From the IMG/VR virus record IMGVR_UViG_3300026224_000016: 9,689 nt of DNA; one strand, 5' to 3'. The notes beneath the pieces are model-generated. The model searched no databases. It worked only from the letters and a program-made list of their open reading frames with translations, and had not been told where the DNA came from. The translations under genes and the position numbers were made by a program. The stretch comes from a virus (lineage: Duplodnaviria > Heunggongvirae > Uroviricota > Caudoviricetes). Numbering within the stretch: position 1 is the stretch's first letter; each line of letters begins with the position of its first letter. Below, one piece after another: positions 3,775 to 9,689 of the stretch.

Positions 3775-3995
3775 ACGGCACCTCCCAGGCGTTTAAACAT
3801 TTTTCCGGACTGAAACGCCACCAGTGGGTAACTGATGGTGTAGTTACGCCCCAGTAATTCACACACGACTTTCTGGCTTTCGGTACTGACCAGGCAAACC
3901 CGCAGAACATGGCCGTTGCTGGTGGCAAACCACTGCCCCACACGGGGGCAACGGTTGTATCGGTGATACAGGGAATTAACGACGCGGCGAATCAT
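3771..3995 (-). CDS. hypothetical protein (74 aa)
   Basis: ATG at 3995 overlaps the stop of the upstream 220-aa gene (ATGA at 3992-3995), with a GGGAAG SD-like element 7 nt upstream. The track's longer start at 4010 has no SD. No family recognised. Confidence 0.5.
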   Translation of the reverse strand: MIRRVVNSLYHRYNRCPRVGQWFATSNGHVLRVCLVSTESQKVVCELLGRNYTISYPLVAFQSGKMFKRLGGAV

Positions 3996-4654
3996 GGGCG
4001 CACTTCCCATTGATTACGGCGGAAAGCAGTGTGATTCAGGCTGGTTTCAGCCTCATGGAATGCTTCAATGCAGCTCTCGTAGTACCGCATTGTGCGCAGA
4101 CTTAACCCAAGCTGAAGCATCATCAGACCATCAAGGGTGATGTAATAACCACGCAGGGAATCGCCATACACGTGGTAAGTACCCGGAATGAAATTACGGG
4201 AGAAGAATTCACGTGAGCAGTTCAGATACTCGATTTTGTCGACGATGTTCTGGTGCATGCGCTTAAAGTGGCAGGCAACATGCAGGGAGAAAATAACAGC
4301 TTTGCCGTTGACGACTTCGATTTTCAGGTATGGGGAAGTTGGGACTGTAGCCATGATGGCAGCCTCCGTATGCAATGGATAACTTCCACCACCGGAAACG
4401 CCAATTTCACTGGTGGTGAACTGAACGGGGTTGGCGTAACCGGCGCATACGGAAACCGGCGCATCTTTCGATGCCCCCGCCCAGCCCACCATAATCTGGA
4501 TGTGAGCAAATGCGGACGATAAAAAAGACGCTGGCGCGTCGTATATCGCCGTATGCAATTCCAGGACGCCAATCCCGGCACCCGCTTTATAAGGTGCCAG
4601 AACAGTGTAACGTCCCGAAATTGCAGAATCAATATTTAGGCTTGAAACATTCAT
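3992..4654 (-). CDS. hypothetical protein (220 aa)
   Basis: Long ORF with protein-like composition, co-oriented with and coupled into the replication operon. Weak or absent SD upstream of ATG 4654. No motif recognised. Confidence 0.6.
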   Translation of the reverse strand: MNVSSLNIDSAISGRYTVLAPYKAGAGIGVLELHTAIYDAPASFLSSAFAHIQIMVGWAGASKDAPVSVCAGYANPVQFTTSEIGVSGGGSYPLHTEAAIMATVPTSPYLKIEVVNGKAVIFSLHVACHFKRMHQNIVDKIEYLNCSREFFSRNFIPGTYHVYGDSLRGYYITLDGLMMLQLGLSLRTMRYYESCIEAFHEAETSLNHTAFRRNQWEVRP

Positions 4655-4732
4655 ATGCTTACTGGTATTTTTGTTGACGTTCTTGGATTCTTGGGCCTGC
4701 TTTATGCAGTTGCCTGTATCAACGTTGAGCGA

Positions 4733-4757
4733 GCCGGGTTACTACCCGGCTTTTTTT
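4733..4757 (+). terminator. rho-independent terminator-like hairpin, oriented for plus-strand transcripts
   Basis: GC-rich stem GCCGGGT (4733-4739) / ACCCGGC (4744-4750), loop TACT, followed by TTTTTTT (4751-4757). On the minus strand the hairpin is preceded by an A-tract and followed by non-U-rich sequence, so polarity favours the plus strand although it sits right at the Rha gene stop. Confidence 0.5.
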
Positions 4758-5464
4758 CACCGCTGCCAACCAATAACCTGAAATAACCCCATTTTCGGGT
4801 GATACCAGCGAGTCCCTCGCGGTTCTGCTTCCTCCATAACCCGATAAAAAGCAGCCATAAACGGTTCCACAGCAACAATTGCGCGACGTGACAACAATCC
4901 GTCCGGCGTCATGAACTCATGGGTGTCTGTAGGAATTTGATAGGCGTTCACCAGATTGCGGCATTTATCATCTGACAAACCGGTTTTTGCTTTCAGTTGG
5001 CGATATCCGGCATAGCCCTCACGAATGGTGCCCTTTTTGATTTGCTCAACTGTTTCGGCAACATGGCTGACTTTTTCTTCCACCTGAGTGATCCGTTTCT
5101 GCTGGCGAACAGCTTCAAGAGCCATCGCTGCAACCATTTCGATTTCGCTCATTGGCTTACGGATCTGTTCTTCCAGTTCGCGCCAGCGATCTACCAGGCG
5201 AGCAGTGAATTCAGGACAGAGCTGTGCGACGACAATGATGCTGTCGCGCTTACCTTGTTCTCCTTCAAACAGGTAATGCTCATATTGAACTTTAAAACCT
5301 AAGTTATTGATTCTTTCGGAAACCTCAATTTGAGGAGACCGGACAACGCCACCTTTGGCTAATGTTTCAATAGTGCGTTTCACATTGTCATGACGTTTAC
5401 CCACCAGCTCTGCGATTTCAACGCTGGTCATGGATACTTTGTCGTTAAAAATTGCAGCGTTCAT
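4757..5464 (-). CDS. rha: Rha-family phage regulatory protein / antirepressor-like (235 aa)
   Basis: N-terminal segment MTSVEIAELVGKRHDNVKRTIETL matches the characteristic Rha-family N-terminal motif. Start set to ATG 5464 (SD AAAGAGG about 7 nt upstream) rather than the track's 5488. Confidence 0.75.
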   Translation of the reverse strand: MNAAIFNDKVSMTSVEIAELVGKRHDNVKRTIETLAKGGVVRSPQIEVSERINNLGFKVQYEHYLFEGEQGKRDSIIVVAQLCPEFTARLVDRWRELEEQIRKPMSEIEMVAAMALEAVRQQKRITQVEEKVSHVAETVEQIKKGTIREGYAGYRQLKAKTGLSDDKCRNLVNAYQIPTDTHEFMTPDGLLSRRAIVAVEPFMAAFYRVMEEAEPRGTRWYHPKMGLFQVIGWQR

Positions 5465-6277: not shown

Positions 6278-6293
6278 TATCGGAAAGCCGATA
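6278..6293. promoter_or_regulatory. 16-bp palindrome TATCGGAAAGCCGATA in the cro-cI intergenic region; candidate operator
   Basis: Inverted repeat TATCGG-N4-CCGATA read directly, lying between the divergent cro and cI starts, where lambdoid OR operators occur. Confidence 0.45.
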
Positions 6294-6327: not shown

Positions 6328-7020
6328 ATGACATTTTCAGAACGACTTGATTTAGCTATGCGCAACGCAAAATTTACGCAAGGTAGGCTGGCCAAAGAAG
6401 TGGGTATGGCTCAGTCCAGTGTCAATCAACTACTTAACAAAGCCAACGGTTCCAGAAAAACAGTCGAAATAGCAAAAGTTTTGGGCGTTAACCCGGAATG
6501 GCTCGCATCGGGTGTTGGCCCAATGGAAATCGTGACCTCTGCAGACTCACACCAAATACGTAACATTTCTGAAGATTGGGTTACTGATTCGTATGTCGTG
6601 GATGTTTTAGACATCAGATATAGTTGCGGACCTGGTAGTTATAACTCTGATTTTCCTGACATTGTCAGATCTATAGCGATAGAACCAGGATACGCATCAA
6701 GAGTTTTTGGCGGCAGGCCAGCATCAGCAATCAAAGCAATAAACGCCCACGGCGACAGTATGAAAGGCACAATAGACCCTGAAGACTTGGTATTTGTAGA
6801 TGTATCAGTTCGCACATTTAATGGTGATGGTATATACGCCTTTACATACTCTGGAACATCGCACATCAAAAGACTTCAAAAAATCAAAGATACTCTAACG
6901 GTGATATCTGACAACCCAGCTTACAAGGATTGGGCTATCGAACCGGAAGACTTCGAACAACTTCACATTGACGGAAAAGTAATTGTCAGTTGGCCCATGA
7001 CACTACACCGTTTTGCATAA
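6328..7020 (+). CDS. cI: CI-like prophage repressor: N-terminal XRE-type HTH plus C-terminal LexA/S24 autopeptidase domain (230 aa)
   Basis: HTH FTQGRLAKEVGMAQSSVNQLLN. S24 catalytic signatures: Ser in AHGDSMKG and Lys in HIKRLQK. SD GGAGG 9 nt before ATG 6328. Divergent from cro. Confidence 0.9.
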   Translation: MTFSERLDLAMRNAKFTQGRLAKEVGMAQSSVNQLLNKANGSRKTVEIAKVLGVNPEWLASGVGPMEIVTSADSHQIRNISEDWVTDSYVVDVLDIRYSCGPGSYNSDFPDIVRSIAIEPGYASRVFGGRPASAIKAINAHGDSMKGTIDPEDLVFVDVSVRTFNGDGIYAFTYSGTSHIKRLQKIKDTLTVISDNPAYKDWAIEPEDFEQLHIDGKVIVSWPMTLHRFA

Positions 7021-7038: not shown

Positions 7039-7064
7039 GCCCACTCTTAAGTGGGCTTTTTTTT
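7039..7064 (+). terminator. rho-independent terminator downstream of cI
   Basis: Stem GCCCACT (7039-7045) / AGTGGGC (7050-7056), loop CTTA, followed by eight T residues (7057-7064), 19 nt after the cI stop. Confidence 0.8.
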
Positions 7065-7085
7065 GGAAAAAAATCGATAAACCGA

Positions 7086-7114
7086 TTGACAGACAAAATC
7101 GGCAAACCTATTAT
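7086..7114 (+). promoter_or_regulatory. sigma70-like promoter for the accessory cassette, with flanking repeats
   Basis: -35 TTGACA (7086-7091), 17-nt spacer, -10 TATTAT (7109-7114). Direct repeats AAATCGATAAACC (7071-7083) and AAATCGGCAAACC (7096-7108) flank the -35, and CCGATT (7082-7087) / AATCGG (7096-7101) form an inverted pair. Confidence 0.55.
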
Positions 7115-7163
7115 CATGGCATAGGTATCGAACTCACCAAAGCAATTATAGAGGATGAGAAAA

Positions 7164-7661
7164 ATGTCATCGTATATGGGGTTACCAACAAATCAGCACG
7201 ATGCTCTTGAGAATATTCAACTCTTAGTAGGGGCTGGTGCACTACTGTATAGCAGCAATAATCCTGAGTTAATTGAACTTGCCAGCTCCATCCTGGCTGT
7301 AACTCAAAAATACAGCCTCACCGCGTCGCGTTTATGCAAACAAAATTTAGCTATTAATTCCCAGAATCGGATTCGCACCCAACGCGAAGCCTGCGGCTTA
7401 ACAACCGCCGAACTCGCCAGGCTGCTCGATCTCGATGAAGAAATTATCATCCAGTGGGAGAGCGGAGAGTATGAACCAACTATCAGTATGCTTATCCCAC
7501 TGGCAAATATTCTTGGCTGCGATCCGATGTGGCTGTTAACTGGCGAAGTTACTCCTCCGGAGCAACCAAAAAGTGAGGAGCAGCAACACCATGACGCATC
7601 TCAACAAGTTTGCTCCTTATCTCGCGAAGCTCTTCTACGGAAGAACCAATACCAATGGTGA
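7164..7661 (+). CDS. HTH (XRE/Cro-C1-type) DNA-binding protein with an uncharacterised N-terminal domain (165 aa)
   Basis: C-terminal half has a classic XRE HTH (LTTAELARLLDLDEEIIIQWESGEYEPTISMLIPLANILGCDPMWLLTG). The roughly 75-aa N-terminal region matches nothing I recognise. Start chosen at ATG 7164 (SD GAGGA, 8-nt spacer). Confidence 0.7.
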   Translation: MSSYMGLPTNQHDALENIQLLVGAGALLYSSNNPELIELASSILAVTQKYSLTASRLCKQNLAINSQNRIRTQREACGLTTAELARLLDLDEEIIIQWESGEYEPTISMLIPLANILGCDPMWLLTGEVTPPEQPKSEEQQHHDASQQVCSLSREALLRKNQYQW

Positions 7662-8353: not shown

Positions 8354-8542
8354 ATGAAAGAAAAACAACAGAACATAACACATGAAAAAGTAAGAGTGTT
8401 GTTGACCATTGAAAATGGGAAAGTGATTTACTCAAAACATCTGTCGGATGATGAATTCGTTGGCTGCATGGATACATTTCTGTGGATGGTAAAAAGAGCG
8501 GGTTACACGATTATTCCACCAGCAAAGGAACAAACATTATGA
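8354..8542 (+). CDS. hypothetical small protein (62 aa), translationally coupled to the downstream gene
   Basis: SD GGGAGA (8341-8346) 7 nt before ATG 8354. Its stop overlaps the next gene's start as ATGA at 8539-8542. Charged, soluble-looking. Confidence 0.55.
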   Translation: MKEKQQNITHEKVRVLLTIENGKVIYSKHLSDDEFVGCMDTFLWMVKRAGYTIIPPAKEQTL

Positions 8543-9120
8543 ATTATTCAGAGTTCCGACCAGAAGTTACGCCACATGGCATAAAAATTGGCAATACAAC
8601 CATTGATTATGTTGAGGCCGTACAGCGACTTAATGATGGTGAATACGATTATCCAAACTCACACGGTTTAAGAATCATGCAATGTATTGCTGAAGCCGAT
8701 GATGCAGGGTTGCTGGGACGATTTTCAGTCGATATGAAAGTTGCTCAATGGCGATGGCTGTATGTGACTACGTTTATAAATGAAGAGAAAGACAAGAACG
8801 GTACCGTTGATATCCCTAACGATAATGGAACTACAGATCGCGCAGTTATTTACAAGGGGAAACATGGTTGCCTGAGTATCTACCCCGGACCACTTCGCAT
8901 TGCCCTGCAAAACCATGTCGAATGGGGATTTATTGAAAAATATGGCGAAGCTGAAGGCATGGGGCGAGTTCTGTTTCTCTATCAAAAAATGCTCATCGCA
9001 GATCCTGATAATGGTTTCATTATCTCTGCTATGGGGCGCGAAGGGCTTGAACTCCTTCTGGATGAAATGATTCACGATCTGAATACTCATGGTATGCCAG
9101 AAGCGCCAGTGACACATTAA
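8539..9120 (+). CDS. hypothetical protein (193 aa)
   Basis: Start set to ATG 8539 (SD AAGGAA, ATGA overlap with upstream stop) rather than the track's 8482. No nucleotide-binding or catalytic motif recognised by eye. Confidence 0.65.
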   Translation: MNYSEFRPEVTPHGIKIGNTTIDYVEAVQRLNDGEYDYPNSHGLRIMQCIAEADDAGLLGRFSVDMKVAQWRWLYVTTFINEEKDKNGTVDIPNDNGTTDRAVIYKGKHGCLSIYPGPLRIALQNHVEWGFIEKYGEAEGMGRVLFLYQKMLIADPDNGFIISAMGREGLELLLDEMIHDLNTHGMPEAPVTH

Positions 9121-9127
9121 ATATTAA

Positions 9128-9152
9128 GAAGAATATAATTCTTCCGTTTTTT
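9128..9152 (+). terminator. terminator-like hairpin closing the accessory cassette
   Basis: Perfect inverted repeat GAAGAAT (9128-9134) / ATTCTTC (9138-9144), loop ATA, then CG and TTTTTT (9147-9152). The stem is AT-rich, so strength is uncertain. Confidence 0.4.
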
Positions 9153-9165
9153 ACTAACCGTTTAT

Positions 9166-9273
9166 ATGAAAAGCAACCGTGAATTAAGCAGAGTAAAACT
9201 GATTTTAATCCTTGCCACAGTGCTGACACTAACTGAAATCATTATTCTCTTTATTGCGCTGTCAGTCGGTTAA
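9166..9273 (+). CDS. candidate small hydrophobic single-pass membrane peptide (35 aa)
   Basis: My own translation: MKSNRELSRVKLILILATVLTLTEIIILFIALSVG, a charged N-terminus followed by one hydrophobic helix. No SD, and below the track's length cutoff, so this is tentative. Confidence 0.25.
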   Translation: MKSNRELSRVKLILILATVLTLTEIIILFIALSVG

Positions 9274-9296
9274 AAATATCGGGATACCACAGACCA

Positions 9297-9485
9297 ATGA
9301 GACTGTATTTCACAATAGTAATTTTACTGGCAATTATCGCATGCATTTACGGATTACTCGTTCCGTTCCTTATATCCATGAAGGATACGATAGCAGTTAT
9401 TTCTGGCTTTGCACTGGCGTTTCTGACCCCGCCCTGCATTTATGCCATTTACAAGGGTCTTTCTTTCACTAAGGATAAAAGATGA
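9297..9485 (+). CDS. small membrane protein, two predicted transmembrane helices (62 aa)
   Basis: Strongly hydrophobic product (IVILLAIIACIYGLLVPFLI and AVISGFALAFLTPPCIYAIY). Stop overlaps the downstream lipoprotein start (ATGA at 9482-9485). Weak SD. Confidence 0.45.
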   Translation: MRLYFTIVILLAIIACIYGLLVPFLISMKDTIAVISGFALAFLTPPCIYAIYKGLSFTKDKR

Positions 9486-9562
9486 AAAAAATTATTTTTG
9501 CTTTAGCCATTGTTCTGCCGACTATTGGCCTTGTCGGTTGCGATCGCGTTGAACCAGGTAAT
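9482..9562 (+). pseudogene. small lipoprotein gene, 5' portion only, interrupted by an IS903-group insertion
   Basis: SD AAGGA then ATG 9482. Product MKKIIFALAIVLPTIGLVGC-DRVEPGN has a signal peptide with lipobox LVGC. The reading frame runs into the IS inverted repeat at 9563 and stops at an IS-derived TAA (9575-9577). Confidence 0.5.
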
Positions 9563-9689
9563 GGCTTTGTTGAATAAATCGAACTTTTGCTGAGTTGAAG
9601 GATCAGATCACGCATCCTCCCGACAACACAGACCATTCCGTGGCAAAGCAAAAGTTCAGAATCACCAACTGGTCCACCTACAACAAAGC
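9563..9689 (+). mobile_element. IS903-group (IS5 family) insertion sequence, left end; element continues beyond the window
   Basis: Starts with the terminal inverted repeat GGCTTTGTTGAATAAATCG. The following about 125 bp differ at only 4 positions from the IS903 left end as I recall it from Tn903 cassettes. Identification is from memory, not alignment. Confidence 0.8.
9640..9689 (+). CDS. IS903-family transposase, N-terminal 16 codons (partial)
   Basis: GTG 9640 followed by AKQKFRITNWSTYNK, matching the conserved N-terminus of IS903/IS102-type transposases (KQKFKITNWSTYNKALINRG). In-frame TTG at 9595 is an alternative start. Confidence 0.55.
   Translation, partial: MAKQKFRITNWSTYNK

Follow-up and report, generated by a model that had tools for sequence, protein, structure and literature searches.

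A small two-helix membrane protein gene that travels with an SPFH lipoprotein gene in phiP27-like prophages and other phages

The window analysed here, a stretch of 9,689 nucleotides from a Caudoviricetes virus (IMG/VR record IMGVR_UViG_3300026224_000016), carries near its right end two very small hydrophobic open reading frames (ORFs), ORF35 and ORF62, which had been predicted from the sequence to form a cluster of small membrane proteins, perhaps type I toxin-like peptides, exclusion proteins or envelope modulators. ORF62 is clearly a genuine gene under purifying selection, with conservation, codon-position bias and synteny that go beyond chance, and it travels with the gene for an SPFH lipoprotein, not with ORF35. 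The ORF62 and SPFH genes form a pair that moves as a unit among phages. ORF62 is probably a two-helix inner-membrane protein in a translationally coupled SPFH lipoprotein module, where it would supply the membrane component of a periplasm-facing SPFH assembly. The module is inactivated in the window: the SPFH gene has been cut by an insertion sequence (IS), leaving ORF62 intact but orphaned. Both ORFs lie where the original prediction had placed them, and the features concerned are the following.

9166..9273, plus strand: ORF35, a hydrophobic single-helix ORF of 35 codons with an ATG start, found only in the window-type arrangement
9297..9485, plus strand: ORF62, an ATG-started gene for a two-helix inner-membrane protein of 62 amino acids, PHROG 1130 family, identical to WP_001242070.1
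9471..9485, plus strand: translational-coupling junction, with a Shine-Dalgarno sequence AAGGA (9471-9475) inside the C-terminal codons of ORF62
9482..9577, plus strand: stub of the SPFH/Band_7 lipoprotein gene, 31 codons (27 native and 4 encoded by the IS) and a stop
9563..9689, plus strand: left end of an IS903B-like (IS5-family) element, which begins GGCTTTGTTGAATAAATCG and runs off the window

The ATG of the SPFH gene (9482-9484) overlaps the TGA of ORF62 (9483-9485) as ATGA, and this overlap is kept in 96 of the 98 loci of a set seeded with ORF62; the exceptions, L015/L016 (a Shigella flexneri genome and an E. coli genome), have a junction sequence that we take to be the end of an IS1. 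An AAGGA or AAGGAG lies 5' of the SPFH start in several distant pairs as well. Five distant members of the ORF62 family from metagenome assemblies (P0058, P0063, P0098, P0109 and P0075) all have an SPFH partner gene next to them (5/5), and the distant pairs are separated by a 4-nucleotide overlap or a gap of at most 2 nucleotides, except in L099, where a gene for 65 amino acids lies in between. The distant partners match Band_7 where Pfam data exist and are otherwise recognisable as SPFH sequence, and their contigs also encode DNA polymerase A, ribonucleotide reductase, DNA ligase or a methyltransferase. The reciprocal search, seeded with SPFH genes in IMG/VR, found a small hydrophobic ORF overlapping the SPFH start in every locus (80/80). 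By hidden Markov model (HMM) 75 of these 80 belong to the ORF62 family; the other five are one ORF cut by an IS5 end and four divergent alleles of 67 or 78 amino acids, which are two-helix proteins with a Y..LLP.MISS motif and whose genes still overlap the start of SPFH. A member of the ORF62 family stands directly upstream of an SPFH/Band_7 lipoprotein gene in essentially all loci examined. In three IMG/VR loci (L173, L174 and L185, ~1284-1520) both the small gene and the signal peptide of SPFH diverge strongly among alleles of 62, 67 and 78 amino acids, while the mature SPFH protein after the lipobox cysteine is at least 91% identical, a pattern that could reflect either faster evolution of the membrane part or the exchange of a cassette made of the small gene and the signal peptide. 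The result is a family of phage and prophage SPFH lipoproteins with a dedicated two-helix partner of 60-80 amino acids, present in E. coli (including Stx-converting phages), Klebsiella, Salmonella, Enterobacter, Pantoea and metagenomic phages, and we found no mention of this pairing in the literature searched, where the peptide sequences gave no specific match either.

Selection on the ORF62 frame is apparent from its variants. In the 90 loci with a 62-amino acid copy, variant alleles fall at codon positions 1, 2 and 3 in the proportion 28/15/60, with 57 synonymous and 46 non-synonymous variants (ratio of non-synonymous to synonymous rates, dN/dS, ~0.26; binomial p 1.7e-11) and none that creates a stop, whereas the ratios are 1.0 and 1.9 in the other two frames, which do contain stop-creating variants. 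Conservation with a synonymous bias, which the original prediction had proposed as a sign of real small genes, is therefore found for ORF62. The protein, MRLYFTIVILLAIIACIYGLLVPFLISMKDTIAVISGFALAFLTPPCIYAIYKGLSFTKDKR, matches the phrog_1130 profile with E 2.5e-23 (residues 1-61 against profile positions 2-62 of 66), and PHROG 1130 is annotated as 'membrane protein' in the category 'moron, auxiliary metabolic gene and host takeover'. Homologs number 35 at 63-95% identity, including E. coli, Salmonella and Klebsiella proteins; a scan of genome contigs with the ORF62 profile gave 3 loci, with a related locus in Pantoea, and a profile search of all proteins in a 1.84-billion-protein library gave 90 cluster representatives at E ≤ 1e-3, all of 36-91 amino acids.

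The sequence family is already known in databases as a hypothetical membrane protein. Pfam, NCBIfam and PADLOC hold no family for it, the sole Pfam match at E ≤ 1 being a spurious one to COX8, and the Prokaryotic Genome Annotation Pipeline (PGAP) calls ORF62 as a coding sequence in E. coli UMNF18, under the name hypothetical. The expectation that so small a membrane protein would be missed by annotation was partly right, for ORF62 is absent from the RefSeq record of phiP27 and from Stx2a-phage records, but both PGAP and PHROGs have it. The 62-amino acid gene deserves to be called, since several reference annotations omit it. The 90%-identity cluster of ORF62 has partial SPFH lipoprotein fragments of 64-217 amino acids among its members, one of them the representative; considered as possible ORF62-SPFH fusions, these longer members proved to be SPFH fragments joined by a clustering artefact, one that could mislead automatic naming.

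The single helix expected of ORF35 and the two helices expected of ORF62 are borne out by their hydrophobic stretches and, for ORF62, by an AlphaFold2 model built with 21 homologs, which has helices at residues 2-26 and 31-59 and a break at S-M-K-D. The family motif YG..VP.L(I/V)S.KD(T/S).AV..G, set between two hydrophobic helices and accompanied by a basic tail, recurs in distant members, and in the alignment A1 the invariant columns are Y18, L20, P23, L25-T31 and G37. ORF62 has R2 at one terminus and the tail KGLSFTKDKR at the other. By the positive-inside rule both ends would be cytoplasmic and the invariant S-M-K-D-T turn would face the periplasm.

The gene downstream of ORF62 had been described as a lipoprotein gene, and a signal peptide and lipobox do begin at 9482, but what remains in the window is a 31-codon stub of a 275-amino acid SPFH gene. 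In UMNF18, phiP27 and all other relatives the same ATG opens the intact protein, which PGAP names 'SPFH domain-containing protein' and which in one relative (L001:4383-5210) matches Band_7 with 109.2 bits against a Pfam cut-off of 23.6 (E 3e-31). The stub keeps the signal peptide, the lipobox LVGC, the aspartate at +2 and 7 more native residues, the native sequence ending at 9562/9563; the signal peptide and lipobox (L-x-[GAS]-C) read MKKIIFALAIVLPTIGLVGC, followed by D, and lipid modification is predicted. A signal peptide and lipobox cysteine are present in every SPFH partner examined. From the lipobox and the Asp+2 rule, the SPFH lipoprotein would be tethered at the periplasmic face (outer leaflet) of the inner membrane. 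Its nearest relatives are HflK (PDB 7vhq, E 4e-4) and the hflC/hflK models of NCBIfam, all of them far below cut-offs (E 4e-4 to 4e-6).

Because homology stops at 9563, where the IS begins, the SPFH gene is read as cut after codon 27 by an IS903B-like element, and to judge from the sequence the window's 'lipoprotein' is an IS-truncated pseudogene. The IS end matches 2953 records annotated as IS5 family or IS903B transposase elements, and the SPFH/IS junction of the window occurs in no complete E. coli genome of the collection. Many of the IS matches begin ~12 nucleotides before the inverted repeat; a longer IS end was considered as the reason and rejected, the extra matches being explained by a similar target sequence at the L098 insertion. 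There an IS5-family element lies in an unrelated gene of another strain, and its flank (L098 1300-1312, GAACCGGGAAAT) resembles the 12-nucleotide flank in the window (9551-9563, GAACCAGGTAAT), a likeness that may reflect target-site preference. The SPFH module has been struck by IS elements at least three separate times, in the window, in L015/L016 near 3186 and in L181 near 130; in L181, an IMG/VR contig, the small gene is truncated by what looks like an IS5 end. Such repeated strikes could mean that the module is dispensable or costly in lysogens, or simply that the hosts are rich in IS elements.

How might a two-helix membrane protein and an SPFH lipoprotein work together? SPFH proteins assemble into rings or cages on membranes, and members such as stomatin, prohibitin, flotillin or HflK/C build membrane cages in all domains of life, with clients and partners that are still being worked out. 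By analogy, the phage SPFH lipoprotein may assemble as a ring or cage at the periplasmic face of the inner membrane, with the ORF62 hairpin as its integral-membrane component, whether as anchor, nucleator or enclosed client. ORF62 is taken as the membrane component because the SPFH lipoprotein has no transmembrane helix of its own and because SPFH proteins form rings and cages, and its role could be viewed as a parallel to that of the NfeD-type partners of cellular SPFH proteins. Of the three functions suggested originally, an envelope modulator comes nearest to this, insofar as ORF62 is the obligatory neighbour of an SPFH membrane-scaffold lipoprotein. ORF62-SPFH is possibly the smallest system of an SPFH protein plus partner, which would make it a tractable model for the anchoring and contents of SPFH cages, and it is a candidate for a phage early function that acts on the host envelope.

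The timing suggested for the pair comes from its position. In the window we have the immunity and early-left region of an E. coli prophage, lambdoid and phiP27-like: positions 9100-9563 are 100% identical to E. coli UMNF18, 97.8% identical to the Stx2e phage phiP27 and ~97% identical to several Stx2a/Stx2d-converting phages. The features at the start of the early-left operon are these.

6328-7020, plus strand: LexA-family cI-like repressor gene, facing a cro-like gene and replication genes on the minus strand
7039..7064, plus strand: strong intrinsic terminator 3' of the cI-like gene, GCCCACT-CTTA-AGTGGGC (7039-7056) followed by T8, from a terminator scan (7 pairs, 5 GC)
7073-7086 and 7098-7111, plus strand: two operator-like 14-mers of the form ATCGnnAAAccnAT, direct repeats that overlap the PL-like promoter
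7086-7114, plus strand: PL-like promoter TTGACA-17-TATTAT, an 11/12 promoter match

The terminator separates the repressor transcript from the early-left operon. The two 14-mers that overlap the promoter read ATCGATAAACCGAT and ATCGGCAAACCTAT, and a similar 14-mer, the palindrome ATCGGAAAGCCGAT, lies between the repressor gene and the cro-like gene at 6279-6292; since the pattern comes from these very sites, its statistics are partly circular. Positions 7073-7114 and 6279-6292 are likely to be the OL/PL and OR operators of this immunity type, and 7086-7114 is probably a PL-type early-left promoter under repressor control. The transcript with ORF35, ORF62 and SPFH, of which the two small ORFs lie ~2.1 kb downstream and would be reached by read-through, probably begins at this promoter as well. 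All genes from 7155 on are on the plus strand, and where the relatives are intact the series runs on through SPFH as far as the genes for excisionase and integrase, the neighbours of ORF62 there being SPFH, DUF5406, DUF4222, xis and int. A scan of 9121-9296 found no plus-strand promoter that ORF62 could call its own, the sole plus-strand match lying inside ORF62.

Position in the early-left operon suggests that the pair would be switched on after derepression or infection. A lytic or early role seems more likely than one in lysogenic conversion because of this apparent operon position and because members occur on contigs with replication genes. Candidate outcomes would be a modulation of FtsH that bears on the lysis-lysogeny decision, the exclusion of superinfecting DNA, or protection of the envelope.

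Several observations within the same region concern its other genes. The gene listed at 7155-7661 as 168 amino acids is called by PGAP as a 136-amino acid helix-turn-helix protein in the identical UMNF18 sequence, and that at 8482-9120 as 193 instead of 212 amino acids, also in identical UMNF18 sequence; the GTG start of the 212-amino acid version, which overlaps a preceding gene for 62 amino acids, is probably too far upstream. On the other side of the repressor, strong Rfam matches, one to C4 antisense RNA (80.5 bits, E 5e-15) and one to the isrK Hfq-binding RNA (61.8 bits, E 1e-11), lie on the minus strand at 4409-4496 and 4521-4597, downstream of a Rha-family gene and within a listed 220-amino acid ORF (3992-4654), a layout that suggests a P1/P7-type c4-controlled antirepressor (immI-like) module in a lambdoid prophage. 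A third small hydrophobic ORF, of 43 amino acids (4655-4786, plus strand), with a grand average of hydropathy (GRAVY) of 1.04, is placed between the Rha-family gene and the C4/isrK region, its neighbours being on the other strand.

What weighs against ORF62 as the membrane component of an SPFH assembly? Gene adjacency alone is no proof of a complex, and the association of the two proteins is something that we infer; fusions of the two, which would join them outright, number 0 among the 90 cluster representatives, all stand-alone proteins of at most 91 amino acids. The confidence of the ORF62 AlphaFold2 model is moderate (predicted local distance difference test, pLDDT, 66.8). The +2 residue of the lipoprotein is D, W or S in distant relatives, so that its membrane location may differ among them. 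In the window-type arrangement ORF62 has no Shine-Dalgarno sequence within 4-12 nucleotides of its ATG (GGGATACCACAGACCAATG), and its expression level there is uncertain for this reason. An internal promoter is possible, and would make the pair a moron expressed in the lysogen. Unlike NfeD, ORF62 has no OB-fold domain (no PF01957 match at E ≤ 1, and 62 amino acids are too few for one), which leaves the analogy a functional one.

ORF35 stands apart from all this. Four arrangements occur upstream of ORF62 while the ORF62-SPFH pair stays together, and ORF35 belongs to one of them, contrary to the prediction of a single cluster.

Arrangement A (the window type): 212-amino acid gene, hairpin and ORF35, then ORF62 without a Shine-Dalgarno sequence
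Arrangement B: 92-amino acid gene that overlaps ORF62, with AGGAGG before ORF62
Arrangement C: 130-amino acid gene, then a spacer with CAGGAGG
Arrangement D: 135-amino acid gene that overlaps or abuts the ORF62 start
Hairpin of arrangement A, 9128..9152, plus strand: GAAGAAT-ATA-ATTCTTC (stem 9128-9144; 7 bp, 2 GC), then CG and T6

Only in arrangement A does ORF62 have neither a ribosome-binding site nor an overlapping upstream gene; the others offer sites of the AGGAGG type, a site of the AAGGGA/GAGGG type or an upstream gene that overlaps. The arrangements join ORF62 within its first 2-3 codons (MRL... against MNI..., MIA... and MKL...; L079-L097, L003-L008 and L015-L017 compared with window 9121-9305), where there appears to be a recombination breakpoint at the extreme 5' end of the gene. 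The 'cassette terminator' that was said to precede the small ORFs exists as a 7-bp hairpin with T6, but with 2 GC pairs and -4.9 kcal/mol it is passed over by the terminator scan, and in relatives it is degraded to between -2.4 and -4.3 kcal/mol by substitutions that are not compensatory. A strong terminator before ORF35 is rejected on this energy and lack of conservation, and the hairpin is at best a leaky terminator.

Is ORF35 then a gene at all? It reads MKSNRELSRVKLILILATVLTLTEIIILFIALSVG, a polar, net-positive N-terminus followed by one hydrophobic helix, and it is present in 70 of the 98 loci, always in arrangement A and within E. coli solely between the same two genes. The odds are about even that it arose by chance, or is a relic, within a non-coding spacer, with ORF62 as the only gene. 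It lacks a Shine-Dalgarno sequence, as predicted and as is now seen for ORF62 too, is confined to one lineage and has never been annotated, and ORFs with 20-36 codons are frequent here, where 9100-9689 is overlapped by 14 that encode at least 20 amino acids. Nor is there a significant coding signature: its variants fall at codon positions 1, 2 and 3 as 13/5/13, with 11 synonymous and 20 non-synonymous (dN/dS ~0.63, binomial p=0.15), one antisense frame scores as well, and its variation per site equals that of the spacer. On the other side stands its composition, with T-rich second codon positions and an extreme hydrophobicity that are unlikely in random sequence, although a decayed fragment of a membrane gene would still be allowed. 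ORF35 and ORF62 (GRAVY 1.32 and 1.25) are the two most hydrophobic of the 64 ATG ORFs of 30-80 amino acids in the window, and when the 176-nucleotide spacer is shuffled, 4.7% of the shuffles contain an ATG ORF with 35 codons or more, and 0.055% contain one that is as hydrophobic.

A translated leader or small membrane peptide, whose stop 23 nucleotides upstream of ORF62 would deliver ribosomes to its Shine-Dalgarno-less start, is a tentative reading of ORF35 that we regard as possible but distinctly the less probable of the two. It would account for the fact that the ORF35-carrying arrangement is the only one without a Shine-Dalgarno sequence before ORF62. The ORF is open in 69 of the 70 loci, no indel occurs over the 131 nucleotides from its ATG to that of ORF62 (a T tract just upstream varies in length), codon position 2 varies least (5 against 13 and 13), and the hydrophobicity is far beyond that of the shuffles. 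The open frame itself carries little weight because all copies lie within ~10% divergence; conservation of the frame, offered in the original prediction as a mark of translation, is weakly seen among these close relatives and is absent outside the one lineage. The lack of a Shine-Dalgarno sequence of its own and the dN/dS value, with p = 0.15 and an equal antisense frame, count against a leader as they count for a chance ORF. In one relative ATA replaces ATG in an otherwise unchanged ORF35, and there are no homologs in other contexts. The three common variants, looked up exactly, are absent from a 15-billion-protein collection in which ORF62 occurs on ~1000 contigs, and Pfam, PHROGs, NCBIfam and PADLOC give no family match. 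A scan of IMG/VR with a degenerate DNA pattern for ORF35 returned, by contig names, known phiP27-like contigs and one chance match; tblastn of ORF35 against phages gave no match although phiP27 is in the collection, probably through low-complexity masking. That ORF35 might be a degenerate copy of the ORF62 family was considered and rejected (HMM score 0.6 bits). Taken by itself, the proposition that ORF35 is a translated and functional peptide is one we would lean against without dismissing it. ORF35 is not part of the module but a lineage-specific hydrophobic ORF, possibly a translated leader, a small membrane peptide or non-coding.

For ORF62 itself, the main alternative to a membrane component of an SPFH assembly is that it is the effector, a pinholin-like or superinfection-exclusion protein comparable to T4 Imm or HK97 gp15, with the SPFH lipoprotein as its regulator or chaperone. 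We regard this as unlikely, although the form of the protein, with two transmembrane helices, a basic C-terminal tail and a length of 60-70 amino acids, is that generally known from class II holins and small exclusion proteins, and although its early operon, close to genes for immunity and integration, is a place where exclusion genes often occur. Its PHROGs category of moron and host takeover points the same way, and the small protein evolves much faster than mature SPFH, as would be expected in an arms race. However, no holin or exclusion family in Pfam or PHROGs matches it, the loci examined have no endolysin or spanin neighbours, and PADLOC has no defence model for ORF62 or SPFH; a structural partnership would explain the strict 1:1 coupling and the invariant periplasmic turn no less well. 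A known defence system was rejected for the locus as a whole, PADLOC giving no match for ORF35, ORF62, SPFH or the upstream 212-amino acid protein.

A far more specific proposal sees in the pair a cage built by the phage, HflK/C-like and facing the periplasm, with a minimal membrane subunit, which would come into play early upon induction or infection and capture or wall off a host inner-membrane machine, either FtsH, with effects on the stability of CII/CIII-type regulators, or a DNA-entry channel, with superinfection exclusion as the outcome. The fast-evolving small subunit would set target specificity, and in the phiP27 lineage ORF35 would be a further translated membrane peptide, by which translation of ORF62 from its Shine-Dalgarno-less start is gated. 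Taken as a whole this is speculative and quite improbable.

The suggestion that ORF35, ORF62 or both are type I toxin-like peptides, membrane-depolarising and restrained by antisense RNA, draws on their shortness and strong hydrophobicity (the two highest GRAVY values of the 64 small ORFs), on the Ldr/Fst-type size and shape of ORF35 (a polar N-terminus and one helix, without a Shine-Dalgarno sequence) and on two antisense promoter-like sites within ORF35, but it is very improbable: neither ORF matches a toxin family in Pfam, PHROGs, NCBIfam or PADLOC, an Rfam scan of the whole window gives no family at 9100-9500 with E ≤ 1, antisense promoter-like sites are as frequent as chance would give (3 against an expected 3.3), the RNA folds no better than shuffled sequence does (z = -1.1), the strict coupling to SPFH accounts for ORF62, ORF62 is intact though its partner is destroyed, and ORF35 has lost its ATG in one relative with no other change. 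A constitutive toxin-antidote pair likewise misfits, because ORF62 is intact here with its partner destroyed while in a different locus an IS has cut the small gene instead.

How does the module that we propose, a two-helix protein coupled to an SPFH lipoprotein, compare with known systems? Type I toxins (Hok, Ldr, TisB, Fst, Ibs, ShoB) are short, hydrophobic and prone to evade annotation, and ORF35 is similar to them in size and shape; unlike them, ORF62 has two helices and a conserved protein-coding partner, with no antisense RNA family and no structured mRNA signal. Class II holins and pinholins (phage 21 S), T4 Imm and HK97 gp15 are phage inner-membrane proteins of ~60-85 amino acids with two transmembrane helices and a charged C-terminus. 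ORF62 resembles class II holins in its two helices, its presumed N-in/C-in topology and its charged C-terminus, and differs from them in lying in an early-left operon beside xis and int, always paired with SPFH and without a holin HMM match.

A prophage-borne SPFH protein has been described in a lambda-like prophage of Pasteurella multocida, where the HflK/C-like PM0222 is reported to be released in outer-membrane vesicles and to contribute to virulence via TLR1/2 (PMC9872710). PM0222 can be likened to the SPFH lipoprotein here by description only, and the paper mentions no small partner gene (PMC9872710). HflK and HflC, which form a cage around FtsH, are the nearest sequence relatives of the SPFH lipoprotein, with very weak similarity, and are predicted to share its side of the inner membrane; they are the periplasm-facing SPFH proteins of E. 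coli (PMC10434171), and passages of PMC4936722 and PMC10434171 cite work in which HflKC modulates FtsH, the protease that degrades lambda CII. Unlike HflK/HflC, the phage module has one SPFH gene and not a K/C pair, and a lipid anchor in place of an N-terminal helix, and nothing here points to FtsH as its client. The NfeD-SPFH operons include yqiJ-yqiK and qmcA-ybbJ of E. coli and nfeD-floA/floT of Bacillus and Staphylococcus (PMC13086221, PMC10434171), in which the NfeD partner is co-transcribed with the SPFH gene and is believed to favour the SPFH oligomer or to become part of it (PMC13086221, PMC10434171). SPFH proteins often act together with a membrane partner of this kind from their own operon (PMC13086221). 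The QmcA/YqiK-type partners of NfeD face the cytoplasm, whereas the SPFH protein here is a lipoprotein without a transmembrane helix and is predicted to be periplasmic. As in the NfeD systems, ORF62 is a small membrane protein gene that adjoins an SPFH gene, here with an ATGA overlap and an adjacency that is conserved.

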